Shown: piece by piece, positions 13,740-59,500 of the stretch
How the letters are laid out: each line of letters opens with the position of its first letter
Numbering within the stretch: the stretch's first letter is position 1
Assembly (NCBI GenBank): GCA_030390025.1
Contig: CM059432.1
Span: forward strand, 100,628,001 to 100,692,000
Direction: 5' to 3'
DNA from: Squalus acanthias
Taxonomy: Eukaryota
DNA length: 64,000 nucleotides
Translations under genes and position numbers: made by a program
Notes under the pieces: model-generated
The model's input: only the letters and a program-made list of their open reading frames with translations
Databases searched by the model: none
What the model was told of the DNA's origin: nothing

Positions 13740-15475
13740 AACTCAGGGTGGATAAGTCACCGAGCCCTGATAACATGCACCCTAGGCTGTTTAAGGAAAT
13801 CAGAGTGGAGGTAGTAGATGCTTGTGGCACAATTATTCAATGCTCCTTAGATATGTAAATTGTGCCCGAGGGCTGGAGAGTAGCCAATGTAATACGTTGG
13901 TTCAAGAAGGGACAGAAGGATAAGTCAGGTAGTTACAGATCAGTTCGTGTAATGTTAGTTACGGACAAACTCTTAAAATCCATCATTCAAGATATAATTA
14001 GTGAGCATTTAGAAATGTATGGGTTAATCCAGAATGGAATTCTCTAAGTGTTAGACAAATTTGGAAGTTTCTGAAGTAGTTAGCGATTGGATAGAAAAAG
14101 AAAATACAGTGGATACAGTATATATATATGGTTTTCAGAGGGCATTTGATAAGCTGTGTCACAAGAGTGTTGCTAGAAAAGTTCAGGCATATGGTGTAAG
14201 AGGAAATGTAGTAGCATGGCTAGAGGGTTGATTGACGGACAGGGAACAAAGAAATAGGATAAATGGGTGTTGCTTAGATTGGAACAGAGATGGAAGTGAT
14301 GTACTCCAGGCGTAGTGCTGGGTCCACTTTTGTTCTCAGTATATCTGGATGATTTGGACTTGAAAATAGGAGACTAAAATTTCAAAATTTATGGATGGCA
14401 CAAAAGGAGGGTGTTCAGCAAACCGTAAGGGGGACTGCAACAGACTTCGCGAAGACAAAGCTAGCTGAGTCGAATGGACAAACGGGTACAATTTAACACA
14501 TTTTGGGAGAAAAGACTAAGGGGGAGAAATTCATTATCGCCCCGTTTGGGGTGCTAACTTTTAAAAGTTGAAAAACTTAGCGCCAGGCACTAATGTTTCT
14601 CAACTTTTAAAAAATTCGGTTTTGCGCTCCAGGAAGGAAGTGGAGCGCTACATCAAGCACTTCACTTCCTTCCTGGAGCGCAACAGGCAGGGCGGTAGGT
14701 GTGCAGCGCTGCACAATGGGCCGTGCAGCGCTGCCGCGTTGGAAGGCTCCTTCCCTCTCTTAAAGGGTAGAGCCATCGCTGCAGGCTCTGCAAGAGGGAA
14801 ACTTACCTGGTCCCGGACGGCAGCCACAATCCAGCCCGATGCACTGCAGCAGAGTGCCAGGCTGATCGAGAGCTGGGGAAAAAAGGAAAAAAAAAACAGA
14901 AAACGAGCATTTGATAATTTTTTTGCCTACCTCGGCCACCTCGCCTTTAAGTATCGCGCCTGAAGCGCCCGGCCTTCCGAGCAATGCCTCCAGCAGCTGC
15001 CGGTGTTGTCGCTGGCGATGCTGCAGGGGGCGAAACTGAAGTTCGGGCCCGGGGCACAACCGAGGCGATGACGTCACGATCTCTGGGCGAAGGAGATCGG
15101 GGCGTAATGCTGTACCGCCGCCACAAACCTCCCGGCGAATTTAGCAGGAGGCAATATTCTCGCCGCGCCCAGGCGGTAAGTGGTTAGCGCTCTATTATCA
15201 CCCCCCGGAGGCGATAACGGGAGGTGCAAAGGTACCCAATTTCTCCCCCAAGGAATGGTAGTGTACACTAATGCAAAGACACTGAAGATTATGGATGAAC
15301 AGAAAGATGTAGAGGTTCAAATACATAATTCTCTGAAAGTGCGAGTGAAAGTAGATAAATCCATTTAAAAAAAGGCCAGGAGCATTTTTCGTTTTATAAA
15401 TAGGGTCATTGAATGCAAGGGTAAGCAGCAATAAAATATTTGGAGAACTGTGCACAGTTTTGGGCACCCCATGAC
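13740..15475 (+). mobile_element. Old degenerate CR1 RT fragment split by a MITE
   Basis: LRVDKSPSPDNMHPRLFKE and VPEGWRVANV, with further decayed RT motifs to ~14515, resuming after 15250. Confidence 0.8.
14520..15249. mobile_element. GC-rich Harbinger-type MITE related to families A/B
   Basis: TIR GGGG(G)AGAAATT...AATTTCTCCCCC. Probable TSD AAG. Shares ttaaaggg, atgacgtca and cctttaa motifs with A/B. Confidence 0.85.
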
Positions 15476-18159: not shown

Positions 18160-18902
18160 GGCCCAGAAATTAAACACTGAGTGTTCACGCGGGGGTAAGG
18201 CTTCCCCGCGATATCTCACTCCGCGCCTACCTTTTTCCTCCGGGCCCACACGAACTTTAGTTTCAAGGCTGCAGCTGTGCAGTGCTTGCGTGACCCAGAG
18301 ACGCAATTAGTTCGTGCGAGCTCTGGGATCACGTGATTCAGTTACAGCCAATGGCAGCACACCATCTTTCATTCATAGTTTTGACAGGAAGACCTGTCAA
18401 AGCTATGAATACTATACCCCCCCAAAAGAACAGCTAAACCTCAATTAAATTTTAAAAAAGCCATCACATTAATAAAATAAGTATAGTTAAATAAATTAAC
18501 CACTTTAAACAAAAAATTAAATTTTTGAAAAAATTTAAAATCTTTTTAAAAGTTATAAAAATAAACTTACCTTTCTTTAAAGTCTCTAAAAAAGATAAAC
18601 CTGTTGAAAAAAATTTAAAATAATACTTAATTAACTACTTACCTTGTTAAAAGAGGGTCTTACGCCTCCTTTCTTTATGTGTAAAATCTTCCATGCTTAC
18701 CTGCGCATTCAAAGCACTAAGTGCACTGCGTGCGCGCAGCCTGTAGCGCGCACGCGGTTCACTTAGGAACCGCCCCCTTTTGAATTCACGAAGTGCCGGT
18801 TTCCCGCGCATGCGCAGTGCATGCTGGAAACCGGCAATTGGAGACCTAAAACGCGAGAGTACACAGTGCGTACTCTCGCGTATTAGATCTAATTTTCGGG
18901 CC
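18160..18902. mobile_element. Harbinger-type MITE with AT-rich core
   Basis: TIR GGCCCAGAAATTA...TAATTTTCGGGCC. TSD AAT (18157-59, 18903-05). Confidence 0.85.
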
Positions 18903-19662: not shown

Positions 19663-20474
19663 AGGAGGCGATTTCGCCAATGGGGGCGCGCTGGTGATGG
19701 GACTGCTGCTTGTCGGGTCGATGTCCCGCTCCATCGATTTGTGGCCAACCCACGCTATTTTCCCTTGATTGACCTTGTTAAGCCCGCCCAGCGGGCTTAG
19801 CAGGCCAATTAAGGGAAAGCCGGTTACAGAGAGCGTCAGTGTATGACGTTTCATCTGTCAAAAATTTTTGACAGATGAATTGTCATCGTTTGACAGCTCT
19901 GTGAAGCTGACATTTTCTGTAGTTTGATGAGTTCTTGAATTCAAGACTCATCAAACCTCTTTTGCAGAAATTAGATGGTTGTTGCATTGGAGAATGCAAC
20001 AACCATTTGTCATCTCTGCCGCGGAGGTGCGAGACTCTCTGCATACCCAACGATTGAAGCCTGCAGGAAGAAACAAAGGTAAGTAAACTTTTACTAACAC
20101 TTTCCACTTACCTCACATACTCACCTCTCCACACTTGCACCCATCACTTACCTTCACAGCGCACTTTTGCACCCCGCAGACCCACTACTCGCCTCCGTGA
20201 CCCTGGCGAGGTTCGCAGCCTTCGGGAAGCCTGCACTTGTGTGGGTAAAATGGGGACAATTCTCTTATCTGCCTGTTAACTACCTGTTAACAGGCAGTTA
20301 AGTGGCTGTAATCCCCTTCCCGCCTCCAAGGAGACGGGACTCAGCGCGGGTCGGCTACCCGCCTCCTGGCAAGATGGCACGGAGGCGGGTTGGGGGCCTA
20401 CCCCCAGATTCTGCCACTTTCCCAGCAGTCCCACCTCGATACCTGCCTCCCCAGGGCTGGCAAGATCGCGCCCC
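19663..20474. mobile_element. Harbinger-type non-autonomous element
   Basis: Imperfect TIRs GGAGGCGATTTCGCC / GGCAAGATCGCGCCCC. GC-rich subterminal arms resemble those of the 25252 and 53379 elements. Confidence 0.55.
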
Positions 20475-22547: not shown

Positions 22548-23320
22548 GGGGGAAAAATTCAGCTGCTTGCGCCTCCCGTTAGCGCCTTAAATGGGCGCTA
22601 ATGGGGCGTAAAGCAGCTAACGCCCGGGCGCAGCGCCGCCCACGCCTCCCGAAAAATTTAGTGGGAGGTTAGCGGCGGCGGCAGCCGGTAGCGCCCTGTG
22701 GCGCTGCGCCGCCGGCGATGACGTCATCGCCGTGCGCAGCGCCCCGCTCGCGCCCCGGCCGTGATCTTCAGTCGCGCCCCCTGATTTACCGCCAGACGCT
22801 ATGTCCGACGGGTTCAGGGGGGCGTACGTGCGGCCGGGGCGGCGATATTTAAAGGGGAGGTGGCAGGCGGCCATTTTTGTTGCTGGCCGCCTGCCAGCAC
22901 CTGCCCCCGTTGCTGTCCCCGGCCCCCGTGAAGCCCCCCCACCGTGAAGTGCCGGCTGCGCTCCAAGAGCCCGGCACTTCTCTTGAGTGCCGGGCTCTTT
23001 TGCCGGCACTCCCGATCCCTGGGAGCCCAGCTGGGCCCCGGTTCGCGCTGCGCAAGGCCCCTCCCCTTTAAGAAGGGGAGGAAGGCCTGCAATACCGCGG
23101 CGCGACGTGCCGCAGCGCGTGGCGCTGCGGCACGTAGCGCCAGGATATTCACTCGCAGCGCCCCAAGAGGGATGCGGGGTGCTTCCAGTTGCGCCCCGCT
23201 TCCCTCTTGGGGCGCAACCACTGAAGTTCCGGCGCGGGGCCGCTAATTTTTTCGGGGCGCTAAAAGTCGCGCCCCGGCGAGGTTAGCGCCCCAAATGGGG
23301 CGCGACTCAATTTTTACCCC
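22548..23320 (-). mobile_element. Uninterrupted MITE family A copy
   Basis: TIR GGGGGAAAAATT / AATTTTTACCCC. TSD AGA (22545-47, 23321-23). Reverse complement of 6041-6342 plus 7239-7646. Confidence 0.9.
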
Positions 23321-28371: not shown

Positions 28372-31300
28372 GTCATAGAGTCACAACGGCATAGAAGGAG
28401 GCTATTCGGCCCATCGAGTCTGTGCCGGCTCTCTGTAGAGCAATCCAGTCAGTCCCATTCCCTCACTCTATCCCCGTAACCCTGCAAGTTTATTTCCTTC
28501 AAGTGCCTATCCAGTCTCCCCTTGAAAATATTGAGGGGGAAAAATTCAGTTGGTTGCGCCTCCCGTTAGCGCCTTAAGAGGGCTCTAATGGGGCGCAAAG
28601 CATCAAGCGCCCAGGCGCGGCGAAGTTTGCGCCGCTCGCGAAATTAACTAGACATTTTGCGGCGGCGCTAAACACTACCGCCACGATCTCCTACGTCGGC
28701 AGATCGTGACATCAGTCGAGTGCGCAACGCCCCGGAGCGGATATTGAGTGGCGCCCCCTGCCTTACCGCCTGATGCTAGCAACGACAGGTTGAGGGGAGC
28801 ATTCTCCAGTCATGAAGGGAAAGGGGGAGCGCTATTTAAAGGTGACCGCTTCCTGCCTTTTATTGTTGGTGCCATTTTTTAACTACGCATTCTGAGAGAG
28901 AGAGAGAGAGAGAGAGACTTCTGGAGAGATTCAACGTTGTGTGAAGGAGTTTTGGGTACTCAGCAGCACTTTGCAGGTTCATTTTGATTTGCCATTCCTC
29001 GTATCGATTTAGAAGAGATTGTGGGGGCTGCACTCTGAGCTCTTTGCCTGGTACTCTCCATTGTTCTTTCCAGCAGATTTGATGTGCAGGTCTCTCCAGG
29101 CCGAGATTCAAGGCTGCAATGAGCAGGATGTGGATGGAAAGCAAGATTAACCATCCCCTTTAAGAACTGGCCCGTGCCATTGTGTGTTTGTTCCATTGCT
29201 GACTGACATTACATGAGCTTCGCCAGCGCTCTGAGGTAGCGCCACGCTCCTCGGCCTTTGTGCCTTAAGACAGGTGTGAAGCGCCTGATTTAGCGCTCCA
29301 ATCACCTCCAGGGGCGATAAAAGTCAAGTTTGCAGTCGGTGGCGATAATTAGCGCCAGGCGCTAATCTTTGCGCCCGGCCGATAATTGCGCCCCAAATGG
29401 GGCGATACTGAATTTCTCCCCCTGAGTGTCTCCGCTTCCACCACTTCCATTGGCAGCGAGTTCCAGGTCTTCACCACTCGCTGCGTAAAAATTTTTTCCT
29501 CACATCCCCCCTGTATCTCTTGCCCAAAACCTTAAATCTGTGTCCCCTAGTCCTTGTACCATCAACTAGTGGGAACAGCCTTTCCCCATCTAGCCTATCC
29601 AAACCCGTCATAATCTTGTATACCTCTATCAAATCACCCCTCAACCTCCTTTGCTCTAATGAAAACAAATCCAGCTTCTCCAACCTGTCCTTGTAGCTAA
29701 GGTCCCCCATCCCCGGAACCATTCTGGTAAATCTCCTCTGCACCCTCTCAAGTGCCTTCACATCCTTCCTAAAGTGTGGTGACCAGAACTGGACGCAATA
29801 CTCCAGTTGTGGCCTAACCAACGATTTAGAAAGGTTCAGCATAACTTCTCTACTTTTGTACTCAATACCTCTATTTATGAAGCCCAAGATCCCATATACT
29901 TTGCTAACCACTCTCTCAATATGTCCTGCCACCTTCAGGGACCTATGCACATTAACTCCCAGGTCCCTTTGTCCCTGCACACTCATTAAAACTGTGCCAT
30001 TAAGTGTATATTGTCTCTCCCTGTTCCTTCTACCAAAATGCATCACCTCACACTTCTCTGTATTAAATTCCATTTGCCACTTGTCTGCCCATTCGGCTAG
30101 CCTTTCTACGTCCTGTTGCAGTCGATTAATATCATCATCACTGTTTGCCACACCCCCAAGTTTGGTGTCATTGGCAAATTTAGAAATTCTACTCTGTATT
30201 CCAATATCCAGGTCATTTATATATATCAAAAAAAGCAGTGGCCCCAGCACTGACCATTGGGGAACACCACTGTCTACCATCCTCCAGTCTGAAAAACAGG
30301 CATTTACCACAACTCGCTGTTTTCTGTCCTTAAGCCAATTCCTTATCCAAGCTGCCACTGACCCACCTATTCCATGAGCCTCAATTTTGTTAACCAGCCT
30401 TCTATGTGGTACTTTGTCAAATGCCTTCCTAAAATCCATGTAGACAACATCCATTGCATTCCCTTCATCAATCCTCCCTGTTACTTCATCAAAAAATTCA
30501 ATTAGATTAGTCAAACACAATCTGCCTTTTACAAATCCGTGTTGGCTCTCCTTAATTAGCTTAAACCTCTCCAAGGGCCCGTTAATTTTTTCCTTGATTA
30601 TTGTTTCTAAAACTTTACCCACCACTGATGTTAAACTGACCAGCCTGTAGTTACTAGGATTGTCCTTACACCCTTTCTTGAACAATAGTGTCACATTTGC
30701 CACTTTCTAATCCTCAAGCACCTCCCCCGCATCTAGGGAAGAATGGAAAATTATGGCAAGCCCTTCCGCTATCTCCTCCCGCAATTCCCTTAGCAACCTG
30801 GGATGCAAGCCATCTGGACCAGGCGACTTATCCCTTCTAAGCACACCCAGCCTTTCTAGTATATCGCCAATATCACCACTCTATAGCTCTTGCATATCTC
30901 TGCAATTTCCCTGCAGATTTGCTCCTCTACCTCCCTCTCACTATTTGGAGGCCTGTAGAATATCCCCAATAGCGTGATCATACCCTTTTTGCCCAACTCT
31001 AACCAAATGGATTCTGTCCTTGTCCCCTAAAGAACATCCTCCCTTTCAAACACTACAATGTCTTCCTTAATCAGCACTGCCACCCCACCTCCCTTTTTTC
31101 CTTCCCTATCTTTTCTGAACACCTTGTACCCTTGAATATTAAGTGCCCAGTCCTCACCGTTTTTAAGCCACGTTTCCATTATTACCACATCATATTGCCA
31201 CACGGCTAATTGTGCTTGTAGCTCACCAACCTTATTCACCACACTTTGTGTATTTAGGTACATGCATTCGAAACCCATTTTTTAATTTGTCGTAGTCTTT

Positions 31301-34244: not shown

Positions 34245-35074
34245 GCATGCTGCACATGTGTGCTTGGGTTGCACACCAGAGTCATGAGCTAGGTGGTCAG
34301 TGGATAGCCCTTGTTGCCCAGTAGCCACCCTCTAGTTTGTCGTGGTGGCTCAAATGCGGATGGTACAGCAGACTGTAGCAGAATGAAGGCATCACGACTG
34401 CTGCCAGGATACCGAGCATTGACTTGCATGATGCGCTGAGTGTGGTCGCACACCAGCTGGACATTGAGGAAGTGGAATCCCTTCCGGTTGCAGTACATTT
34501 TCGAATTCACATGCGGCGCCCATAAAGCAACGTGTGTGCAGTCAATAGCACCCTGCAGAATGTGGAAGCCTGCTATCCTAGCAAAGGCACGTGCTTGCTC
34601 CACCTGCTTCTCTCTGGCAAGAGAGAATGAAATGTATTCATCTCTCATTGCATACAGAGTCTCAGTGACCTCCCTTATGCAACTGTGCACGGTGAACTGG
34701 GAGATGCTGGAAATATCGCCTGCTCCAGCCTGGAAGGAGCCCAACACATAAAAGTTCATGGCCACGCTCACCTCAACAGCCATTGGCAATACTGTCCTCG
34801 TCCAGATCTGAGGCTGCAGTTCAGCCTGCAACAGGTGGCAGATTTCAGTGAGCATCTTCTTAGTGAAGCGGAGACGTTGCACACACTGTTCCTCACTGAG
34901 GTTGAGGTCGGAGAATTGCTCCCTGAAGACCCTGGGTGGATATAGCCTCCTGCTGAGAGCCCTTCTACCCATCCTCTTCCTCCCTCTTCGAGCAACTTGC
35001 CCTCCTCCACATCGCCTGCGCTCATCCTCCCTGTCATGCTGCAGGCCAAGGGGGATACAAACTACTGCACACAT
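34245..35074 (-). pseudogene. Harbinger (HARBI1-like) DDE transposase, 3' truncated
   Basis: ORF 34289..35137: LSEEQCVQRLRFTK, GAIDCTHV, YCNRKGFHFLNVQLVCD, ARYPGSSRDAFIL, LLGNKGY (expected GDxGY Asp replaced by Asn). Confidence 0.9.
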
Positions 35075-35974
35075 GTCTGGGAGCAACTGGCCTGAGCAGA
35101 ATTCTTGAAGTAACCTGCCACGCCACTCCCTGGACACTTCAGCAGCTTCAAATAAGACACCAAACCAAGAAACACCTCTACAAGCTCAGCAAGAGCCAGT
35201 AGAAATCAGTCAGCAACTGACTTGAAAGCAGGTGATGATCCCTTTAAATAGCGTGGGTGAGGGGGTCCTTCCTGCTGCTGAACACATGTTCAGCTGTGCA
35301 TAGTTAAGCGAGGGCGTTAGCTCCAGCATTGAGGTCGAAAATGGCAGCGCTGATGTCAAATCATACATGCTGATTGACGTCATGATCTGCATGCTCTGCA
35401 TAATTCCAGCACCCGCGCTAATGATCTACCCACAATGGTGTCAGGCGCGGCCCGCGCCAGAGGTGTGCGCACACTCCTTGCAGGCCAAATTGGGCACTAC
35501 AGAGCCGAATTTAGCGGCAACTGACTTCACCCTGTAGGACGACCCCTTTCAAGACTTCCTGGGGTGAATGCAAGCTGAGGATCTGCAATGTCATTGGCTG
35601 CAATTGTTTTGTGAAGTCAGTGAAGTAAATGATATTTCAACATAACTATAATCATTATCTTGACTGATGTGAAATAACAGAGAACTATGAACATAACATT
35701 AAAGTGAGTTAACAATGCTTTATTAATGGAGCTGCGCTGTTTTTAAAGTGAGGGAGTTTGAGCTCACACAAGCTTTAGTGAATAAGCCATAGATGGTGAA
35801 GAGGACACGTTTTAGCAGTTTCTGCCAGATCTTAAACAGACTGGAGAAGAATGAGGACCAATTACATTGGCGTATAAATTTGTCTTGGGCAGTGGAGCAA
35901 AACAGACGATAGTGAATCATCAGCATGTTTCCATTGAAGTCAATGGGAAAGAAAATTGGGCGGAGTGATAATGC

Positions 35975-36396: not shown

Positions 36397-37200
36397 GGGG
36401 GGGATTTTAACCTAAAAAAACAGGTGGGTTGGGGTCATGTGGGAAGTTAAAGTGTTAAAAATCTGAATGACGACCAGAACCCGCCTCCAACCTGCCCACT
36501 TCCGGTTTTAACGGAGTTGGGACGGGGCGGGCAGCCAACCTGCTCCCTGGAGACGGGTCATCCATTTAAATATTATAATGAGGCTGAAAGCCTCTGCTTT
36601 AACCTCCATTTTGAATTTAACTTTAGCTGGTTGGGTTTTGCACGCCTTGTGAAACCCGCCAGCTAATGCAAGGCGAGGACTGCTGGATCCAGGAGGTAAG
36701 TGTCTTTACGCTTACCTCCTGGATCCAGTGTCCCTACCGCCCACGATTGGAGACCCCGCACGAGGCCTCCTATTCACCCCCCAGGCCTCCGATCCCAGCC
36801 ATGAGGCCTCCACCCCTCCCATGCTCCTCCGGCCTCCGATACCCACCCAACCCACACCACCGCCCACCGCTCCTCCGGCCCCCAATCCTCACCTGAACCC
36901 ACGCCCGCCAAGTGCTGGTCCCGGCCCCCGATCCTCACCCCTGCTCCTCCGGCCTTCCCTCTCCCCCCACCCCCGTCTCCTCCAGCTGCCCCCGGCCCCC
37001 ACACGATCTCTCCCTCCCTCTGCGGCCTAGTGCCGAAGGCCTACCCGCCCGCAGCCAGCCAGCCTCTCAATCTGGGTGGCTGCAGGTGGGAAACAGGTTT
37101 CTCATGCAAATCAGGCCCTGCCATTAAATTCGGCAGGGCCTGCGGCAAACCCATTCTCCCAGGTTTCCCAACCGCTTCAGAGCCCCCCGCTCCCAACCTA
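36397..37200 (+). mobile_element. MITE-like element with C-rich core
   Basis: Starts gggggggattttaacctaaaaa. The first ~330 bp are inversely homologous to 40720-40993. Confidence 0.6.
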
Positions 37201-40700: not shown

Positions 40701-41688
40701 GTAGGCTAGCTAGGGACCCTGGATCCAGGAGGTAGGTATAAAGGCACTTACCTCCTGGATGCAGCAGTCCCTGTCTTGCTGTAACTGCCGGGTTTTACAA
40801 AGTGTGTAAAACCCGACCAGATGCAGTTAAAAACAAAATGGAGGTTAAAAAAGAGGCTTCCAGCCTTATTCGAATATTTAAGTTGACATCCTGCCTCCTG
40901 GAAGTGGGCGGGTTCAAGTCGGGAATCCGATTTTTAACAATTTAACTACCCCCATGCTCCAAATCCACCCTTTTTTAGGTTAAAATTCCCCCCATGATCT
41001 CTGTTTCAATCACTAATTCTGGTAGTGAATTCCAGACTCACAATCCTCTGTGTGAAGAAGTTTTTTCCTGCTTTAATCTTATTGCTATATCCCCTTATTC
41101 GAGACTCCTCAATTTGTTTTTATCTACTTTGTCCATTCCCTTCATCATTTTAAACACCTCGATCAAATTACCTCTTAACCTCCCCAAATAGTCAAATCAA
41201 TCTTTGTATTTGTATGTCCTTATACCAGGCATCCTCCTAGTGAATCTGTGCTGTACCCGCTCTATTCCCTCAACATCCTTCCTATAATATGGAGCCTAAG
41301 ACTTCAACTGTAAATATAATTCTTTGCAACTAATTCTTAAACGAACTGATGATTAAACTCCCATATTAAGGTGCATTCATTTGTGTTTTATCTAGTTTTG
41401 CACTGTATATCTAAATAATTAAAGTTTACAATTACTGGTTGACCTACACACTACAAAGCAGAAATCAACTAATCGTTTATTTGCTGTAGTGTTTAAAACA
41501 CTTCAACTTGTCTATTTGCTCCATTTCCCAAACATTACTGAGCATGCTTCTGTAATAACAAAACAGCAGAAAATTGCACACACCAATTATTGTTAACAAT
41601 CTTCACGTTGTAGAACTTGTTTATGGTAGAACAAAACTTGCTACTACTGCAACTACTTATATATAATAGAATTTTGAAGTTTAAATCA

Positions 41689-41892
<204 letters not shown>

Positions 41893-42007
41893 TTAAAAAG
41901 GGATAAATTATTTATAATAATAATGTTAGCTTACTTGCTGCGATTTAAAAAAAAATAAAACATGTCTTGTGGGACAAACAGCCACAAAAGTCCCAAGTAC
42001 TCGTAAC

Positions 42008-42177
42008 CAATGTTCCCTTTAAAATTTTGTTGTTGTGTGCGGCCAGTTTTTTTCAATGAGTGGTACCTTTAAATTTGTTGCGGTATTTGCGGACGTGAAC
42101 CTAGAGAGATGAGAGCTTGTGAACGTCCTGCTCCGTACCTTCAAAGTTGCAGCGTGCACAGCTTAAAGAGAACATTG
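42008..42177. mobile_element. hAT-type MITE, 170 bp
   Basis: TIR CAATGTTCCCTTTAA / TTAAAGAGAACATTG. Perfect 8-bp TSD CTCGTAAC (42000-07, 42178-85). Confidence 0.9.
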
Positions 42178-42417
42178 CTCGTAACTTATGATGGAACTTT
42201 TGTTTGTATTCTATTACTATTTGCAGCGAGTCCTTCGAAAGGGAGCTAGACGAGTGGAAGACATTTTGGCCCGGAATTTCCCGGATCACACTTATGCCGG
42301 TTTCTGCACCCAAATATCCTATGGAGCTCATTTACCAATGCTAGAATGTAAAAGTGGCATCTCAATCTCAGAGCATCTTGTCTCTGCTGTTCCTCTTCCT
42401 CTTCCATTATTATGTAG

Positions 42418-42630
42418 TGATGTGGAGATGCCGGCGTTGGACTGGGGTGGACAAAAATGAGAAGTCGCACAACACCAGGTTATAGTCCAACAGATTTATT
42501 TAATTTTACAAGCTTTCGAAGCAGTTCGCTCCTTCGTCAGGTAACCTGACGAAGGAGCGAACTGCTTCGAAAGCTTGTAAAATTAAATAAATCTGTTGGA
42601 CTATAACCTGGTGTTGTGCGACTTCTCATT
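42418..42630 (-). mobile_element. Penelope terminal-repeat insertion forming a perfect palindrome
   Basis: Arms 42456-42542 and 42544-42630 are exact reverse complements. Flanking duplication CATTATTATGTAG at 42405-17 and 42627-39. Homologous terminus at 45657. Confidence 0.85.
42506..42544 (-). ncRNA. Minimal type I hammerhead ribozyme motif (PLE-type); mirror copy on + at 42542-42580
   Basis: UUAC-CUGACGA-A-GGAGC(GAACU)GCUUC-GAAA-GCUU-GUAA: core boxes, 5-bp stem II, 4-bp stem I, palindromic AAGCUU in place of stem III. Confidence 0.7.
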
Positions 42631-44624
42631 ATTATGTAGAACAAGGGTTTGCTCATTAGGAAGGCCATTCCAGTTACTTAGTCCTCCTCCCCTTAAAACC
42701 CAACTTCCGGCTCAGCTTCACTTGGCAGCTGATGGATCTCCCCCTGCCCCCCACCCACCCCCACCCCAAATGGCGAGCTGCCAGTGAGCACTGGTACTAC
42801 ACTTGCAGCTCACCGTTCATATTGAAACAAGGCCTGGCCCTCAAAATGGCTCAGGCCTCTCAGTAAGGACTGTGGGTGAGTGGCACAAGCACTCCTCCCA
42901 CCGCGTTGCAGAAGTCCACTCAAAGCCTAAACCGCCTGACATATATTAAGTGCAGGGGAGAATTTATGCTCTCCTGAACCCCCACCGTAACTAAGACAGA
43001 AGAGCAACGGAAACCCTGGAGAAACAGCATAAATGTCCCTTTTTAGCCATTTACACCGATTCTCCAGGGTTCAGCTGATCTACTGCCAGTGAACCCTGGT
43101 GGAAATTGCAGGCGTATATATTGATCGCAATTATCATATTCATGTGGCGAATGGATTGAACCAAACAGAGACCTAAACCAGAAAAAAATATATATATCTT
43201 TTGGAAATCATCAGTGTAACTGAATGATTCCACAGATCAATAACACAAATGAAAAATTGGTGGCGGGACAGAATATTATTGGAATAGAACTTTACATCGT
43301 CATATCAGAGGAATTCTGCACAATGTCTGCCCTCAGACTACCACTAGTCGTCAGTTTTAAACATAAAACAAGGGGCAACTGAGAGACATTGATATGTACA
43401 AATATCTTTCTTCAAAGCAGGAACTGTGCAGCAGTTCACTTGAATACACTTCTCCTTTGAGCAATTTCTATTGACTTTTCCTCTCCAGAATGTCAGGAAA
43501 CAAATGCCTCACTGGGGAAGCATAACAATTTAAAAAAAAACAACCTTTATTTAAATAACTTCCTGCTAGATCACTATTTATCATTTTGATAATACCAGAA
43601 GCCTGTGATTATGGAAATATGCAAAAATTGTGGAAAGTGACAACAGGCACAATTATCGCCTGCTGCCTGCCCTATTTATGGGCCATCCGGCAGTTGAAAA
43701 TGGCAATGAAACAGCGCTTGCTACTTGGACGAGAGTTGTTAGGACATGGAGTGCCCCCCTGGAACAGCAACATAAACAGGATTCATGACAGCTTTTAAAA
43801 GGGAAATGGATAAATATTTGAGCAAGAACATTTTAAAGGGCATGGGGATAGAACAAGTGAATGGAACTATGGGCATATCTTGTTCTAAGAGCCAGTCAGG
43901 CACAATTGGCTTAATGACCTCTTTCTCTGCTTTACAATTTATGATTCCATGATTTTACATGTCCATCATTTCATTAAAGTAATAGTTACATCAATAGTTC
44001 CAAATAAACCAAGAAGTCACAATTTTGCTAAATAAATAGCAAATGTGTCCAATATTTGCAGATTCCAAATTCATTTTGGTTCATTTATCATCATAGTTGG
44101 TGCGAATGATGCAGGGTGTTGTGAGATGCTGGCTTGTCCTGGGCCATTAGCTGGTAGGCTGTTGAACCAGGTCTACACAACGGAAGAGGAACATATGCTT
44201 CAAACTGACTGCAGGCCACTACTTGAAATGGTGAGTGAGTGAGTGTGAGAGTGAAAGTGAATCATACTTTATCAAGCATGACTTCAAAGACAGCATCCTT
44301 GAATGTGGAGGCATGGGGTGAGAATACTTAATTTTACAGGGATAGTGCAGCTTTAATTTCTTTGCCTTGTCAGGCAGGTGACAATGTGGCCCTTCAAATG
44401 GCTGCTGCAGCACTTTAAAATTCCTGTCAGCTGTGCTCCTTCAGGTAGTTCACCGTGCAGATGAGTGTGTGTTCTGATTACTGCTCATGCCAAATTTCTA
44501 TGGGGAGCAGAAAAATGTCCCCTCATCAGACTATTCCCACCCAAACTGTGCCCCAACAAGAATTTCTGCCTTAGTATTGCAAATATACCTCCAGCAATAA
44601 TGTATTTAAGACAATTCAGACAGT

Positions 44625-44920
44625 GTAAGAAAGAACCTGCATTTACAGAGCACAACTTCAAGATGTCTCAAAGTGCTCCACAACAGATGACTTTTAAAGT
44701 GCAGTTATTGTTGTTATTGTGGCAAACGCCAAAGCCAATTGGCACACGGCAAGGTCCTGCAAACAGCATATGAATGAATGACTGGTGGTATTGCTTGAGA
44801 GTCGAATATTAGTCTGGACATATGAGACTGTCGGCTCTTCTTTGAATAGTGCCACTGGATGTTTTATTTTCACCTGAATGGACAGACCTGGCCTCAGTTT
44901 AACATCTAATCCAAAAGCTG
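44625..44920 (-). mobile_element. DeuSINE-type SINE, degenerate
   Basis: Similar to 52240-52645 (ctcttctttgaatagtgcc, cacctga, ggcctcagtttaacatct). Confidence 0.65.
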
Positions 44921-45159
44921 ATATAACATTTGATTCATACAATATCATGTAAACCATATTTATTTGCAAATTTAGGAGCGTTTTTATACTACTGGTACCA
45001 GTCTCAGACAGAGTTATACTAACAGTTACAAGCTGCAGTTTATCGAAGGGAAAAAGAACTCCAAGCATGAGGGTAAACACAAGCTTTTCTGTGCAGTGGC
45101 TTAAATTTTAATATTTGGATAGAGCCAGCATGCACTTGCTGCATTAACTATTAAGTTAG

Positions 45160-45642
45160 TGACAAAATCCCCGATTCTAACACCCCGCCGCCTGGCAGAA
45201 ACCGGGTGGGGGAGCAGTCAAAAATGAGGGCAGTCACTTACCTTACCTCCCGTGATCCTGCTGCCTTCTCACTGTGTCGCGATCTTAACCTGTTCTTTTG
45301 AGCAGGCGAGTGGGACACCTGCAGGAAGGAAGCAGGGTCCTTCTTTAAGTATGCAGATAAGGTCCTGATGATATCATCGGGACTCAACTGCGATATTAAT
45401 TGGAGGCCCGAGCGGGGGAGCTGCGACGGCTTCCTTGTTAGGTCAGACCTGCCGGGAGGCAGATTGTGGAATCTGAAGAGGCCCAAGTAGGCAATTTTAG
45501 GTTTTCTTGTGGGCCAGGAGGAGCAGGAGTGTTCCTCCAGACCTCACAAGAAAGCTTTGAGCCTCTCTTGCCTGGGCTCCCCCCACGATCGCCTCCAGAG
45601 CCTGCAAGCATCATACCCACACCCTCATTTAAAATCAGGGCC
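45160..45642. mobile_element. Probable MITE
   Basis: ccccgattctaac / tttaaaatcagggcc terminal dyad around a GC-rich body with the gggccaggaggagcaggagt motif. Confidence 0.5.
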
Positions 45643-45656
45643 AAAGTATATGTATG

Positions 45657-45860
45657 TGATGCGGAGATGCCGGTGTTGGACTGGGGTGGACAAAAGTGAG
45701 AAGTCGCACAACACCAGGTTATAGTCCAACAGCTTTATTTGAAATCAAAAGCTTTCGGAGCGCTGCTCCTTCGTCAGGTGAAGTGAAGAAATACAAATGG
45801 GCACAGCATATATAGACAGAGAACAATGCCTGTGCAGAGAACAATGCATATGTAGAGCTG
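45657..45860 (-). mobile_element. Penelope terminus, second copy (single arm)
   Basis: tgatgcggagatgccggtgttggactggggtggacaaaa...gttatagtccaacag...ccttcgtcaggt is homologous to 42418-42542. Right boundary uncertain. Confidence 0.8.
45745..45781 (-). ncRNA. Minimal hammerhead ribozyme motif (PLE-type)
   Basis: UCAC-CUGACGA-A-GGAGC(AGC)GCUCC-GAAA-GCUU-UUGA. Perfect stem II; stem I has a mismatch next to the core. Confidence 0.6.
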
Positions 45861-47179
45861 AAACCTGTAATTGTACCTCCGCGTACAAAAGCTGCAGCAC
45901 TAGTGACACATAGCTTTCAAAAATCAATTGGGGGAGAAAGTAAAATCAAGAGATGCACAATACACAAATGAAGTGTGCGCTTGAGAGGATTGATTGTGTT
46001 GAGTCATATAATAGGATGACATTAGAAAGGTGTAAGATATCCAACACATTAATTGTAGTACAGCTGATGACATTAAGGAAACACCCAAGCATGGTAAAAA
46101 GCTTAGAGTAAATGACTAAGATAAGGATTAGTCATTGCATGGACAATAATCCTTTACACTGATGGTGTTTGAAAGCATCATTAATTTATTCAGAATGGTT
46201 ATTTTACAGAACGACACAGGAGTAAGAAATATGTGTAATTAATTTACTATTGGCAGTATATAATCCTCCATTCTATCGAGGTGCGAGAGGTAGAATCAAG
46301 AAACTAACTGTACAAATTTGTCAATAGAAAAAAAGCAATTACATTTCAGTTAATTTTATAACATCGGGCTAAATTTTGCAGCCTCCTACAGAAATGGAGT
46401 GGCAGTGGCCTGAAAACCATGGGGAAAGAATTAGCACCCTGTTCCCATCGTCACTGTGGCCATGGCAATCCTCCTACCAATGAGCGGCTGGAGTGCTTCC
46501 CTGAGTCAGGCGGTAGGCCCATTTAAAATGCAAATCAGGTTCCTATGGTGTACATGGGACCCCAATTACCTTTTTAGGGGAAAACGGCACGTGTTTCACC
46601 AGCATTGTACTTGAATAGGACCGGTAAAGGTAAATTTCACATAACCTTTGTGGGACCAAGAGAAGCAGAAGTTCCCTTCCAGGACCCACAAAAATACAGC
46701 AGCCCACTGCCAGTCCTCCCCCCACCCCATCAGCCTCGCCTCCGCTCCCCTTCCAGGACCTCCTATGGCTGTGTTGGGACGCCCGTTTGCTGACTGTAGC
46801 TCGCTGGTCGGATTCAAATGAAGCCTCAAAAGTCGCAGCTACCCCAAAAGTCGAAATCTACTCCATGGTGTCTTCATACATAAGTCACATTATTAAATTA
46901 GGACGGTAACATAATGAACAGTAACTGCTAGAGGCTAATTTTTTCTTTTCCTCATATGGGCAATAATCTGGCGGAGCGGATCGCTTGTCTGTTATAGAAG
47001 CCACAGATTTTTCATAATGGTCAGGCAATCCGCCACGCCAGATTCCTGCCCGTGCTGTGAAGATGAAAATGTATCCCCTTCGTTTCTGTACCTCTACCAA
47101 TAGATTCCAATATACAACAGGCAATGGTTATTGTGTGTGCTGTCACAAATCAGCAATGTACTATTTTGCACAATAACCT

Positions 47180-48589: not shown

Positions 48590-50950
48590 CTTGTTTTTGG
48601 CCGGCTGTTACGAGTGGGGTGTCGTAAGGATCAGTGCTGTGCCTCGGTGATTTACAATCTATAATATTTTTAAATGATGAGAAACTATTAAATTTGGTGT
48701 TCAGAGGGATTTGGGTGTCCTTGTACACAAAACACAGAATGTTAGCATGCAGGTACAGGAAGCAATTAGGAAGGCAAATGTATGTTGGCCTTTATTGCAA
48801 GGGGGTTGGAGTACAAGAGTAAAAAAAGGCTGGCTGTACTTAAAGTTGATAAGTCACCAGGACCGGATGGGATGCATCCTAGGATGCTAAGAGAAGTTAA
48901 GGAGGAAATCGCGGAGGTACTGGCCATAATCTTCCAATCCACCTTAGATATGGGGGTGGTGCCAGAGGACTGGAGAATTGCAAATGTTAAACCCTTGTTC
49001 AAAAAAGGTGTAAGGATAAACCCAGCAACTACAGGCCAGTCAGTTTAACCTCGGTAGTGGGGAAGCTTTTAGAAACGATAATTAGGGACAAAGTTAACAG
49101 TCACTTGGACAAGTGTGGATTAAGTAAGGAAAGCCAGCACGGATTTGTTAAAGGCAAATTGTGTTTAACTAACTTGATCGAGTTTTTTGATGAGGTAACA
49201 GAGAGGGTTGATGACGGCAATACGGTTGACGTGGTGTATATGGATTTCCAAAAGGCGTTTGATAAAGTGCCACATAATAGGCTTGCCAGCAAAGTTGAAG
49301 CCCATGGAATAAAAGGGACAGTGGCAGCATGGATACAAAATTGGCTAAGTGACAGGAAAGAGAGAGTAGTGGTGAACTGTTGTTTTTCGGACTGGAGGAA
49401 GGTACACAGTGGTGTTCCCCAGAGGTTAGTACTAGGACGACTACTTTTCTTGAGAAATATTAATGACTTGGACTTGGGAGTACAGGGCACAATTTCAAAA
49501 TTTGCAGATGACACAAAATTTGGAAGTATAGTGAACAGTGAGGAGGATAGTGATAAACTTCAAGAAGACATAGACAGGCTGGTGAAATGGGCAGACACCT
49601 GGCAGATGAAATTTAACACAGAAACGTGCGAAGCAATACATTTTGGTAGGAAGAACGAGGAGAGGCAATATAAACTAAAGGGTACAATCCTAAAGTGGGT
49701 GCATGAACAGAGAGACCTGGGGGTATATGTGCACCAGTCATTGAAGGTGGCAGGGCAGGTTGAGAAAGCGGTTAAAAAAGCATACAGGATCCTGGGCTTC
49801 ATAAATAGAGGCATAGAGTACAAAAGCAAGGAAGTATGATGAACCTTTATAAAACAGTGGCCTCAACTGGAGTACTGTGTCCAATTCTGGGCACCGCACT
49901 TTAGGAAGGATGTGAAGGCCTTAGAGAGGGTGCAGAAAAGATTTATGAGAATGATTCCAGGGATGAGGGACTTCAGTTTTGTGGATAGACTGGAGAAGCT
50001 GGGGTTGTACTGCTAAGAGCATAGAAGGTTGAGAGGAGATTTGATTGAGGTGTTCAAAATCATGATGGGTCTAGACAGAGTAGAAAGAAACTGTTCCTAT
50101 TGGTGGAAGGATCGAGAACCAGAGGACACAGATTTAAGGTGATTGGCAAAAGAACCAAAGGCGACATGAGGAAAAAGTTTTTTATGCAGCGAGTGGTTAG
50201 GATCTGGAATGCACTGCCTGAAAGGGTGGTGGAGGCAGACTCAATCGCGGCTTTCAAAAGGGAATTGGATAAGTACCTAAAGGAAAAAAAATTGCAGGGC
50301 TACAGGGAAAGGGCAGGGGAGTGGGACTAGCTGAAGTACTCTTGCAGAGAGCCGGCACGGGCTCAACGGGCTGAATGGCCTCCTTCTATGCTGTAACCAT
50401 TCTATGATTCTATGAGTAAGGAAGTCTTGCTGCAATTGTACAGGGCTATGGTGAGACCACACCTGGAGTACTGTGTACAGTTTTGGTCTCCATACCTCAG
50501 GAAGGATATACTTGCCTTACAGGGTGCAACGAATGTTCACTAGATTGATTCCTGGGATGAGAGGGTTGTCCTATGAGGAGAGATTGAGTAGAGGGCTTGA
50601 CAGGGTAGATGCTGAGAGGTTGTTTCTCCTAGCTGGAGAGTCTAGAACTGGGGGGGCGGGTGCATAGTCTCAAGATAAGGGGTGGACATTTAGGAATGAG
50701 ATGAGGAGAAATTTCTTCACTCAGAGGGTTGTGAATCTTTGGAACTCTCTACCCCAGGGGGCTGTGGATGCTCAGTCGTTGAATATATTCTAGGCTGAGA
50801 TCGATAGATTTTTGGACTCTAAGGGAATCAAGGGATATGGGGATCATGTGGGAAAGTGGATTTGAGGTCGAAGATCAGCCATGATCTTATTGAATGGCGG
50901 AGCAGGCTCGAGGGACATATGGCCTACTCCTGCTCCTATTTCTTATGTTT
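48590..50950 (+). mobile_element. Host CR1 3' fragment interrupted by a second CR1
   Basis: MLAFIARGLEYKSK stops at 48822 and resumes as gagtaaggaagtcttgctg (SKEVLL) at 50414. Tail atttcttatg near 50945. Confidence 0.85.
48823..50413 (+). mobile_element. 5'-truncated CR1 (RT to 3' tail) nested in CR1
   Basis: RT ORFs 48782..49839. Tail attctatgattctat. TSD GAGTAA (48817-22, 50414-19). Confidence 0.9.
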
Positions 50951-53378: not shown

Positions 53379-55142
53379 GGCCGCGATTTTGCCAGCGCTC
53401 AGAGTGGGGGTTTGGAGGCAGGTCCGCTGTAAAAATCAAAATGATTGCCAGCAGGTTGGGAACCCGCTGCGAACCCGTCTCCATGTAAGTTTCCAAGTGT
53501 CGGGTCTGCGATTTCAGAACAGACCCGACATCAAGCGGCGGGAGAAGCATTTAAGATACTTAACTACTTGTTAAGTGCTTATTTACTAATATTTTTCCAG
53601 CCTTTTTCTATTTTATCACATTTTTAACGGGGTTCACGTCGTTCGGAGATCACGTCAGGTAAGTAGCTTTGGTTCTCTATGTCTCCCCATTGCTGTGAAT
53701 AGGTGACAGCTGCAAAAGTGGTATTAAAAGCTACCATTTCACAGCTGGTCACTTTCCAATGTCAGAAGCTTGAGCCTTCAGAACTTGGAAGACACTTTTG
53801 AGCTGTATGCAGTTTGGAAGTGTTTGGAGTAAACTCTCTCTCCACTGTCACCTCCGTGGAGCAAGCTCTCTCACCATTGACAGAGCACTTCTGTCATCTC
53901 AACTTCAGCTGCCATCTATTCCAGCAACATCGGTGCCCTTGAAAAAACCTCACCTTGGTCCTCTGAATCCCTCCACGATCAGCCCCGAACATCAACATCA
54001 CCAGGCACACCAACAACACCAACCTTCTCCGCAATCACCTGATGTTGCATAGGATACAGGGCATCAGCACCTGACAACATTGCTGCCCAGGAGGCCAGCG
54101 ATGGCATCACCATGGCCAGATTTACTTCACGTGACACTGTACACCCTGGCTGCCACATGATGCGTCAGGTTAACACCACCCCACACCATCACCATAAAGC
54201 ATTCCTACAATGACCAAGTCATTCCTATTACACTCATCACCATTGCAGGGGACACCGTTATGTCACACCATTCACTGCAACTCACAAAGACACTTCCAAA
54301 GGTGAGCACAGATTTATACAATAAGGCAAAGTGTTGAAAATAAAGATTTCAATGTTTGTCAACACATTAACAGAAACTTCACATGAACATTGCATAAAAC
54401 ACCCAAGTGCCTACCCTTGTGTGTTGTTAGTCGGTATGATTTGACTAGGATGAGGGTGAGTGTGAGGGGTGGCTAGTGAGATGGAGAAGTGATAATGTAG
54501 ATAGAGAGGGATGGGTGGAGGTGCAAGGTAAGTTGGTGTGCGTAAGGATGTGCAGGAGTAGGGTAGGGAAGGCAGAGTTATGGGGATGTGATGAGTGGCA
54601 CAGCAGGATGAGGTTGAGTGTGGCTTTGCAGTAACGTTTTGTGATCTACTGAGATCATTGAAAGGTTTGCGTCACTGCAGCCAGGTACTCCTGATGACAT
54701 CCCTGCTTTTGCCCTCCTGTGCAATGTGCAACCAGGCTGTGTTGGTGTCCTGGGGAGGTCTCTTCCGCCCTTGGAAGGGAAGAGAACCTCCCTGTGTGCT
54801 GTGACTCCCTCCATAAGCATATGGAGGGAGTCATGCGAGAGCCTGGGTGCAGCCATGCACCTTTGTGCAGTGCTTGTCAGTGTTTGCAGCACCTCAATGC
54901 TACAGAACACTGGCAGCACAACTGTCAAAATGAATGCGGCCATGGTCCATTTAAGAAAACTGGCTGATGACATGTCATCAGACCCGCTTCCTTTTAATTG
55001 GCCTGGAACCCCGCAGGGCGAGCTTAACAAGCCCTATTAACGGAAAATCCTTTTTACAGAGCGGGTATGGCCGGGAGCGGGACTGGAACCCGTCAACTAC
55101 CTTTCCCTCTGCGAACTCGCCTCCGCTGGCAAAGTCCAGCCC
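53379..55142 (-). mobile_element. Non-autonomous Harbinger with Myb remnant, second copy
   Basis: TIR GGCCGCGATTTTGCCAGC / GCTGGCAAAGTCCAGCCC. TSD TTA (53376-78, 55143-45). AAPRLSHDSLHMLMEGVTAHREVLFP. Confidence 0.85.
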
Positions 55143-56509: not shown

Positions 56510-59500
56510 CATAGGATTACATAGGATATACAGCAAGGAAACAGGCCATTCGGCCCAACCAGTCCATGCCGGCGTTTATGCTCCACTCGAGCCTCCTCCC
56601 GTCTTTCCTCATCTAACTCTATCAGCATAATCCTCTATTCCCTTCTCCCTCATATGCTTGTCTAGCCTCCCCTTAAATGCATCTATACTTTTCGCTTCAA
56701 CCACTCCCTGTGGTAGCGAGTTCCACATTCTCACCACTCTTTGGGTAAAGAAGTTTCTTCTGAATTCCCTATTGGATTTCTTGGTGGCTATCTTATATTG
56801 ATGGCCTCTAGTTATGCTCTTCCCCACAAGTGGAAACATTCTCTCTGTATCCACTCTATCAAAACCTTTCATAATTTTAAAGACCTCTATTAGGTCACCC
56901 CTCAGCCTTTGTTTTTCAAGAGAAAAGAGACCCAGCCTGTTCATCCTTTCCTGATATATATACCCTCGCATTTCTGGTATCATCCTTGTAAATCTTCTCT
57001 GCACCCTCTCCAGTGCCTCTATATGCTTTTTATAATATGGCGACCAGAACTGTACGCAGTGTGGTCTAACCAAGGTTCGATACAGGTTTAGCATAACTTC
57101 CCTACTTTTCAATTCGAAATCTCGAGAAATAAACCCGAATGCTTGGTCTTTTTTTATGGCCTTGCTAACCTGTGTCGCAACTTTTAGTGATTTGTGTATT
57201 TGTACTCCGAGATCACTTTGTTACTCTACCCCACCTAGACTCGCACCCTCCATAGAAACATAGAAGATAGGAGCAGGAGTAGGCCATTCGGCCCGTCGAG
57301 CCTGCTCCGCCATTTAATGAGATCATGGCTGATCATCCAAATTCAGTACCCTGTCCCTGCTTTCTCCCCATATCGCTTGCTCCCTTTAGCCTTAAGAAAT
57401 ATATCTAACTCCTTCTTGAATATATTTAATGAATTGGCCTCAACTGCCTTCTGTGGTAGAGAATTCCACAGGTTCACCACTCTCTGGGTGAAGAAATTCC
57501 TCCTCATCTCAGTCCTAAATGGCTTACCCCTTATCCTTAGACTGTGACCCCTGGTTCTGGACTCCCCCGCCATCAGGAACATCCTTCCTGCATCTAGTCT
57601 GTCTAGTCCTGTTAGAATTTTATAAGTTTCAATGAGATCCCCTCTCATTCTTCTAAACTCTAGCGAATACAAGCCCAATCATCCCAATCTCTCTTCATAC
57701 GTCATTCCTGCCATCCCAGGTATCAGTCTGGTGAATCTTCGCTGCACTCCCTCCATGGCAAGAACATCCTTCCTCAGATAAGGCAACCAAAACTGCACAC
57801 AATACTCAAGGTGTGGTCTCACCAAGGCCCTGCACAACTGCAGCAAGACATCCTTGCTCCTGTACTCGAATCCTCTCGCTATGAAGGCCAACATACCATT
57901 TGCCTTCTTAACCGCCTGCTGCACCTGCATGCTTACCTTCAGCGTCTGGTGCACAAGGACGCCCAGGTCTCGTTGCACTTCCCCTTCTCCCAATCTATTG
58001 CCGTTCAGATAATAATCTGCCTTCCTGTTTTTGCCACCAAAGTGGATAACCTCGCATTTATCCACATTATACTGCATCTGCCATGCATCTGCCCAATCAC
58101 CCAGCCTGTCCAAATCATACTGGAGTTTCTCTGTATCCTCCTCACAGCACACACGCCCACCCAGCTTTGTGTCGTCTGCAAACTTGGAGATATTACATCT
58201 AGTTCCCTCGTCTAGATCATTAATATATATTGTGAATAGCTGGGGTCCTAGCACCGATCCCTGCGGTACCCCACTAGTCACTGCCTGCCACTCGGAAAAA
58301 GACCCGTTTATTGCAACTCTTTGCTTCCTGTCTGCCAACCAGTTCTCTATCCAAGTCAGTACCTTACCCCCAATCCCATGTGCTTTAACTTTGCACGCTA
58401 ATCTCTTATGCGGGACCTTATCAAAAGCCTTCTGAAAGTCCAAATACACCACATCCACTGATTCTCCCTTATCTATTCTACCAGTTACGTCCTCAAAAAA
58501 TTCCAGTAGATTAGTCAAGCATGATTTACCTTTTGTAAATCCATGTTGACTTTGTCCGATCTTATCACTGTTTTCCAAGTGCTCTGCTATTACATCTTTT
58601 ATAATAGACTCTAGCATTTTCCCCACTACCGATGTCAGGCTTCTCTCTACCACCTTTTTTAAATAGTGGGGTTACATTAGCTACCCTCCAATCCATGGGA
58701 ACTATACCAGAGTCTATAGAATTTTGTAAGATGACCAGCAATGCATCTACTATTTTGAGGGCCACTTCCTTCAGTACCCTAGTACTCCAAGTAATAAGTG
58801 ACATGCCTATGCTTCCGACCAAAATGTAATACCTCACATTTATCTGTGTTGAACTTCATTTGCCAATTGTATGCCCATTCTACAAGTTTATTAATATCCT
58901 CCTGTAATTTGTTTCACGCCTCCTCAGTATTGACTATCCCTCCCAATTTGGTGTCATCCGCAAATTTAGAAATTGTGTTTTTGATTCCAAAGTCTAAATC
59001 ATTAATATAAATTGTGAACAACAGTGGTCCCAGCACTGATCCTTGTGGAACACCACTACCCACCTTCTGACACTGTGAATAGCTACCTTTTACCCCTATT
59101 CTCTGCTTTCTGTCTTGAAGCCAGCTAGCTATCCATTCTGCTACTTGTCCCCTAACTCCGTATTCTCTGACCTTGTTCATCAGTCTATTATGGGGTACCT
59201 TATCGAAGGCCTTTTGCAAATCTAGATAAATTACATTGTCTACTCTCTCTTTTACCTCTTCAAAAAATTCAATGAGGTTGGTCAAGCAAGACTTTCCCTT
59301 TTCAAATCCATGCTTACTATTCATTACTATATTTTTGGTTTCTAGATGTTCTTCTATGTTCTCCTTTATAGGGATTCCATTATTTTTCCTACCACCGATG
59401 TTAAGCTGACTGGTCTATATTTCCCTGGACATGTTCTATCCACCTTCTTAAATATAGGTATTACGTTAGCTATCCGCCAGTCCTCTGGCACTACACCTTT

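Follow-up and report, generated by a model that had tools for sequence, protein, structure and literature searches.

The recent insert described here very probably consists of two head-to-head, ribozyme-bearing ends of an abundant and most likely Penelope-like repeat, and integration probably left it behind as a dead-end by-product, with hammerheads that are predicted to be inactive passengers. The insert measures 209 bp and contains no open reading frame (ORF). Inverted-repeat analysis of the window (the whole 64-kb stretch of DNA that was analyzed) revealed that its two arms are complementary at 87 of 87 positions around a single central base, A42543 (Table 1), with the second-longest perfect inverted-repeat arm in the window reaching 21 nt. 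The insert is flanked by a 13-bp direct repeat, CATTATTATGTAG; exact 13-mer repeats within 300 nt begin at just 44 of the 63,680 window positions. The right copy of this duplication shares four nucleotides (CATT) with the right arm, and because CATT is assignable to either the target or the element, the duplication is 9 to 13 bp long. An unpaired tail of 38 nt is present on the left side only. Thus, the perfect palindrome, the 1-nt spacer, the 38-nt tail, and the 13-bp duplication overlapping the arm by 4 nt, all of which had been reported in the initial annotation, were re-found base by base. The central A was probably templated by the source element; the loose-end consensus at this point is weak (five contigs, agreement of 0.55), and the exact palindrome centre is known from the assembly alone. 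In addition, the target DNA at 42397-42408, to the left of the duplication (CTTC-CATT), resembles the tail-less end of the element at 42619-42630 (CTTCTCATT).

TABLE 1 Coordinates of the focal insert, its relatives, and other features in the window
Feature	Position	Strand	Basis or remark
Left target-site duplication copy	42405..42417	+	Present once in X1 record 1 and X2 record 8 (empty site)
One-sided element tail, 38 nt, 3' end in element sense	42418..42455	-	Unpaired; loose contig ends pile at 42418
Left arm, 5'-truncated element end, sense = CSMD3 strand	42456..42542	-	87% identical to second copy at 45657-45790
Centre base A	42543..42543	.	Inverted-repeat analysis; loose-end consensus behind 42544
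Right arm (inverted, without tail), sharing its final 4 nt with duplication	42544..42630	+	Repeat and palindrome analysis
Right target-site duplication copy	42627..42639	+	Direct repeat, empty site
Minimal type I hammerhead motif, 4-bp stem I	42506..42544	-	Motif scan; cut predicted at 42510/42509
Mirror hammerhead motif, stem I with A.A mismatch	42542..42580	+	Motif scan; predicted cut before 42577
Second family copy, non-palindromic, 5'-truncated	45655..45847	-	87% identical; hammerhead motif at 45777
CSMD3-like Sushi exon downstream of insert	41694..41885	-	Pfam Sushi, E 9e-8
Degraded PLE reverse-transcriptase fragment	3167-4226	-	53% identical to Chiloscyllium (bamboo shark) protein, best match
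LINE with long EN and RT frames	7636-10440	+	Open reading frames
Partial LINE copy, 94% identical to 7636-10440 LINE	57251-58782	-	Sequence comparison
LINE RT fragments	29471-30706, 48991-49839, 56609-57220		

Contigs of four sequencing runs, out of at least 24, were compared with the window over 41600-46300. Two of these runs (X1 and X2) represent organism A, in two samples from two studies, and the other two (X6 and X7) represent organisms B and C. Results revealed that X1 record 1 (2,138 nt, depth 15) and X2 record 8 (2,458 nt, depth 4.2) both pass from 42404 directly to 42627, with the insert absent and the duplication present once. The letter differences from the window amounted to 10/1,777 in X1 and 18/1,996 in X2 versus 27 to 29/818 (about 3.4%) in organisms B and C, and this low divergence suggests that organism A is probably the window's own species. 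The contigs of organisms B and C end at 42417 and resume at 42627 with 7 to 8 unaligned letters, which is compatible with an empty site whose gap is unbridged. Because the site is uninterrupted in two other samples of probably the same species, where the duplication sequence occurs once, the palindrome represents a recent insertion rather than a fold-back of local DNA, and it is probably polymorphic. The proposal of a very recent, ORF-less insertion of about 210 bp was therefore upheld, with a measured length of 209 bp and an empty allele in both X1 and X2. The filled allele was found in none of the contigs listed for the four runs, contigs being able to show presence but not absence. This result, which extends to the exact centre, would also fit an assembly or read fold-back artefact imposed on a single-arm insertion; such an artefact is extremely unlikely given that the right arm ends at the duplication, near the second recurrent end of the family, that the flanks are not mirrored, and that similar joints occur in two independent runs. 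The base-exact empty site is new for this insert, and no description of this shark family or of its polymorphism was found in the literature, the supplements of the cited papers being outside the scope of the search.

The insert is a member of a very abundant repeat family. In all four runs, the summed depth over the element, for both window copies, was 1e5 to 1e6, compared with about 4 to 20 in unique flank bins, although this depth does not represent a copy number. A second, non-palindromic copy lies 3.2 kb from the focal insert in the same intron and is flanked by a 7-bp duplication, ATATGTA (45648-54 and 45848-54), and its empty site is present in X6 record 20 and X7 record 25 (organisms B and C). 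A 13-nt internal direct repeat was also observed at the truncated end of this copy. Loose contig ends accumulated at the tail end, both at 42418 (52 in X1 and 65 in X2) and at position 45657 of the second copy (110 and 127). A further 21 contigs ended close to the tail-less end, at 42452, and 42418 and 42452 mark two recurrent ends of the family. Moreover, at least seven left-arm-to-right-arm joints at other positions represent other fold-back copies, all seven without a complete core; these joints were taken, by support, from the best 15 of 264 joint rows and the best 12 of 83 between-letter rows. Near mirror symmetry (within 7 nt) was observed for six of the seven joints in this support-selected subset (p of about 5e-4 under independent uniform ends). 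The two-hammerhead palindrome looks like one truncation outcome among many and not like a designed unit.

The palindromic unit itself might alternatively be a non-autonomous mobile element (a hairpin SINE or MITE-like) that was re-mobilised whole. Some fold-back junction contigs have depths of 10 to 25 times those of their flanks, and although this is not a copy number, one junction may accordingly recur at several loci. However, self-complementary motifs, such as 42499-42583 with its TTAA centre, can give rise to the same junction more than once without common descent, the fold-back centres vary, the duplication length varies (9 to 13 versus 7 bp), and the inverted repeat is not terminal, with a tail on one side, all of which makes re-mobilisation of the whole unit very unlikely. 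In MITEs and other derivatives of DNA transposons, the terminal inverted repeats abut a duplication of fixed length. A derivative of this kind was rejected as a candidate, as 38 nt of tail lie between the left arm and its duplication copy and the duplications of the two window copies differ in length.

A motif scan revealed the arrangement CUGACGA-A-GGAGC-GAACU-GCUUC-GAAA-GCUU on both strands of the palindrome. The minus-strand motif has a 4-bp stem I, UUAC/GUAA, and the plus-strand motif carries an A.A mismatch in stem I. The scan and the sequence agree with the earlier report of hammerhead cores on both strands and of a full UUAC/GUAA stem I in the left arm. By the criteria of PMC4209133, the motif contains the core boxes, the 9/10.1 bulge, G10.1-C11.1, a palindromic 15.2-16.2, and a stem I of 4 to 5 bp. 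It is therefore similar to the minimal hammerheads of metazoan Penelope-like elements (Cervera and De la Pena 2014, PMC4209133) in its CUGANGA and GAAA boxes and 4-bp stem I, as well as in the extra nucleotide between 9 and 10.1, the G10.1-C11.1 pair, and the palindromic 15.2-16.2. Unlike the hammerheads described there, the focal motif has a 5-bp stem II with a G.U pair favouring a competing fold and no Rfam match, and the two putative focal cores start 6 nt apart and base-pair fully with each other. Dual hammerhead motifs on opposite strands are described in Schistosoma at distances of 100 to 700 bp (PMC4209133).

The check proposed in the initial annotation, a search with hammerhead models, failed to provide confirmation, in that none of the Rfam hammerhead models matched the insert at the gathering level or at an E value of ≤10; such a miss is weak evidence for minimal hammerheads, which are without helix III. 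The hammerhead call consequently depends on the motif and its context. With respect to covariation, stem I reads UUAC/GUAA in the focal insert, its 5' side reads UCAC in the second copy, and its 3' side reads GUGA in a loose-end consensus of 15 contigs. Taken together, the two window copies and this consensus show a single compensatory pair between subfamilies in stem I and, in stem II, a change on one side only.

The parent repeat is most likely a Penelope-like retrotransposon (PLE). PLE insertions have been described as a truncated copy with an adjacent inverted copy and a one-sided tail of 30 to 40 bp (PMC8557442), and head-to-head PLE palindromes with target-site duplications of 8 to 10 bp have also been described (PMC3846280). 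The focal insert matches this anatomy in its truncated end with an adjacent inverted head-to-head copy, in a tail that falls within the 30- to 40-bp range, and in short duplications of variable length (9 to 13 bp, and 7 bp in the second copy) with empty sites. In particular, it resembles the insertion unit of endonuclease-bearing PLEs (PMC8557442, Fig. 2 legend; PMC3846280), with its head-to-head truncated and inverted copies and palindromic junction, the tail being 38 here versus 30 to 40 bp there and the duplication 9 to 13 here versus 8 to 10 bp there. It differs from that unit, as far as the latter is described in these sources, in its length of about 200 bp, in the lack of an ORF remnant, and in arms that are equal apart from the tail. 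The earlier assignment to a Penelope-like type with minimal type I hammerhead motifs gained support from the empty site, the abundant family, and the compensatory stem I change. Non-LTR retrozymes (bioRxiv 10.64898/2026.07.22.740005) are likewise short, non-coding, and PLE-derived and carry a type I hammerhead, but they occur as head-to-tail tandems capable of dimer formation, whereas a single head-to-head unit is present here. Since a retrozyme, as described in that source, needs at least two head-to-tail units with complete hammerheads, the single inverted focal unit was not assigned to this class.

The window contains a degraded PLE reverse-transcriptase (RT) fragment (Table 1), located 38 kb from the focal element and unlinked to it. 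The CxxxxCxxC motif at the end of this fragment resembles the linker of Neptune-type PLEs, and no Pfam family was found for the fragment. Pattern, protein, and profile searches identified no PLE reading frame tied to the exact focal family. An exact 24-nt family pattern yielded 0 matches in viral, metagenome, and prokaryote genome collections, and a DNA profile built from the ends of eight relatives did not match the focal element. The sole phmmer match to a 30-aa in-frame translation of the second copy, P0019, is a repetitive protein without similarity to PLEs or to the window and was discarded as a chance match.

Eighty loci related to the RT fragment of the window were compared, 41 of which were scorable, that is, had enough sequence past the ORF end. 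A hammerhead-like core follows the ORF in 29 of these 41 loci, at a median of 162 nt downstream, and a tail motif ends 109 to 127 nt after the core in eight loci. The corresponding distance from hammerhead to tail end is 123 and 121 nt in the two window copies. The ORF-linked relatives carry a CCGACGA core variant; a strict hammerhead scan of the 80 loci returned seven motifs, and the CCGA variant was recognised only after alignment. Inspection of 21 short palindromes from the inverted-repeat list of the relatives yielded four pattern matches and two further ones by eye, and fold-back stubs that lack an ORF and carry up to two hammerhead-like cores, or none, were observed at L072, L028, L003, L051, L017, and L073 (for instance, L073:1396-1581, L028:1085-1223, and L072:1417-1499, on contigs of another host). 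By analogy, the layout shared by these PLE RT-related loci would lend indirect support to a PLE origin of the focal family.

A plausible model for the formation of the insert is provided by PAc, a Poseidon element of Anolis (Frangieh et al. 2024, PMC11167929). The purified PAc protein nicks both strands of its target, extends them, and prefers ATT, its reverse transcription begins at two internal sites bounding the tail with uncut RNA as the template, and cleavage by its hammerhead requires protein (PMC11167929). PAc-like priming accounts for the outer ends of the focal insert and hence for the tail on one side, the tail-less other end, and the ATT-containing, AT-rich target. Both systems also share two ends that are a tail length apart and a cDNA that reads through the uncut hammerhead. 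Two differences from PAc as described in that paper were noted. Reverse transcription proceeds there without target homology, whereas the inner end here pairs at 8 of 9 positions, perhaps by chance; and the ORF begins at stem II there, whereas here an ATG is likely located at the tail end according to a weak loose-end consensus.

Following this model, the GIY-YIG nuclease of the element would make nicks staggered by 9 to 13 bp in an AT-rich, ATT-containing target, and the top-strand end would serve as the primer for reverse transcription from the outer start site, which would yield the tail plus one arm. About 40 nt deeper in the element, at the inner start site, the bottom-strand end would then be joined or act as a primer, possibly aided by imperfect pairing between the target end and the element. 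Finally, both copies would stop about 30 nt past the predicted ribozyme cut and be joined head to head. Because the arms reach about 30 nt beyond this predicted position (42510/42509), the template RNA would have been uncut. The pairing between the bottom-strand target end and the inner end of the element covers 8 of 9 positions, with one wobble, and represents a single case in AT-rich DNA.

For the last two steps, two primed cDNAs are slightly favoured over fold-back copying of the first cDNA, in which the 3' end of that cDNA would be self-primed, copied back, and joined at the ATT-containing inner site. Fold-back copying, which competes at the level of mechanism only, is a serious though somewhat less probable contender. 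The arms are identical and their ends lie within 1 to 2 nt of each other, and the near symmetry of six of the seven support-selected joints argues against fully independent cDNAs; self-priming has been proposed in PMC3846280, and the 8/9 pairing between the inner end and the target fits as well, though it serves either model. Against fold-back copying, a 1-nt centre provides no priming stem, and PAc uses both nicked strands as primers in vitro (PMC11167929). Moreover, the inverted match is confined to the 3' portion of the main copy in L023, L028, L033, L036, L040, L045, L057, and L080, eight loci with unequal arms that were chosen for carrying an ORF. Two separately primed cDNAs remain the slightly preferred origin of the arms.

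With regard to the host gene, the named homologues of the Sushi exon were mostly CSMD3, with a top identity of 96% to a skate CSMD3-like protein, and "Sushi" was the sole annotation returned by the ESM Atlas. Together with the bamboo shark protein that best matches the RT fragment of the window, this skate homologue points to a cartilaginous fish as the likely host. The distance from the acceptor of this exon to the insert is 532 nt, and together with the Pfam Sushi match and the CSMD3 homologues, this agrees with the proposed location in a CSMD3 intron about 530 nt upstream of the Sushi exon. Exon-like CUB-domain stretches were recognised at about 62.9 kb and 22.3 kb by motif scan and translation, and in combination with the Sushi exon they suggest an intron of about 21 kb in a CSMD3-like gene. 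On the CSMD3 strand, the right arm (42546-42590, minus) is pyrimidine-rich and ends in CAG, resembling a possible cryptic 3' splice site that the hairpin is predicted to bury. On the opposite strand, the palindrome centre resembles a splice donor.

RNA folding was predicted at equilibrium for growing transcript lengths, not kinetically. A CSMD3 pre-mRNA that carries the insert would contain a hairpin of 87 bp with the ribozyme buried in it. For an intronic hairpin of this length, ADAR editing or use by Dicer is plausible. The probability of G10.1-C11.1, the closing pair of stem II, in the palindrome was 1e-18 to 1e-23 at every transcript length tested, being 2e-18 or less once the core was complete and 2e-23 thereafter. 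In a lone arm, the probability of this pair was about 0.12, with a competing hairpin preferred. At 42521-42536, the G.U pair of stem II (G-C in the second copy) creates a competing CGAAG/CUUCG hairpin that uses core bases. The hammerhead motif of the focal copy may consequently fold poorly even alone. The folding z-scores of the lone arm were not significant (-1.1, -1.1, and -0.2), and co-folding of two lone arms showed no pairing through the AGCU motif.

On either strand, the complementary arm is transcribed ahead of the core, and as each transcript carries one of the two cores, a dimer cannot form in cis. The suggestion that the RNA could alternate between a long hairpin and a ribozyme fold was not supported by these results, the complement being transcribed first and the closing pair of stem II being so rare. 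The core is predicted to be buried by the hairpin, no cis dimer is available, and single minimal hammerheads are inactive in PMC4209133, leaving the switch idea unsupported. The idea that the insert acts within CSMD3 pre-mRNA as a functional switch or regulator, with the hairpin competing against an active hammerhead, could draw on the complete minus-strand motif in the sense of the host gene and on a second same-strand motif 3.2 kb upstream in the same intron. Its likelihood is nevertheless minimal, given that the insert is absent from other samples, that the closing pair has a probability of about 1e-23 in context and about 0.12 alone, and that single minimal hammerheads were without cleavage in the experiments described in PMC4209133. 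A microRNA precursor was also rejected, the Rfam miRNA and SscA matches being those of a generic hairpin and all below the gathering threshold.

As one among very many similar stubs, the single element matters little. Its value lies in a clean comparison of the site before and after insertion, for a class of retroelements in which some integration steps have yet to be defined, and the empty/filled pair is evidence of family activity recent enough for probable polymorphism. Many such pairs could discriminate between two-primer and fold-back origins of PLE palindromes and show whether the template end is ever set by the hammerhead. A broader reading would be that the family remains mobile in a present-day cartilaginous fish and that its filled/empty pairs preserve a base-level record of PLE integration, including pairing of target and template where the tail is missing, a coupling of the arm ends, and some fold-backs whose inner end coincides with the hammerhead cut. 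If true, the latter fold-backs would be the genomic trace of RNA that had been cut by the hammerhead and then used as a template in vivo. This reading is rather unlikely. One to two of the seven joints, landing at 42577 and 42578, fall within 1 nt of the cut, which is a weak lead not beyond chance, and hammerhead-cut RNA as a template was not detected in the Anolis RNA reads described in PMC11167929.

Besides the LINE sequences listed in Table 1, the window contains a frame at 34289-35185 (minus strand) resembling a Harbinger-type transposase. Imperfect short palindromes, several of them inside repeats and none matching the focal family, were also observed at 14559-14683, 18842-18890, 19843-19886, 19922-19956, 22700-22743, 23091-23235, 36683-36728, 54802-54833, and 1931-1995.
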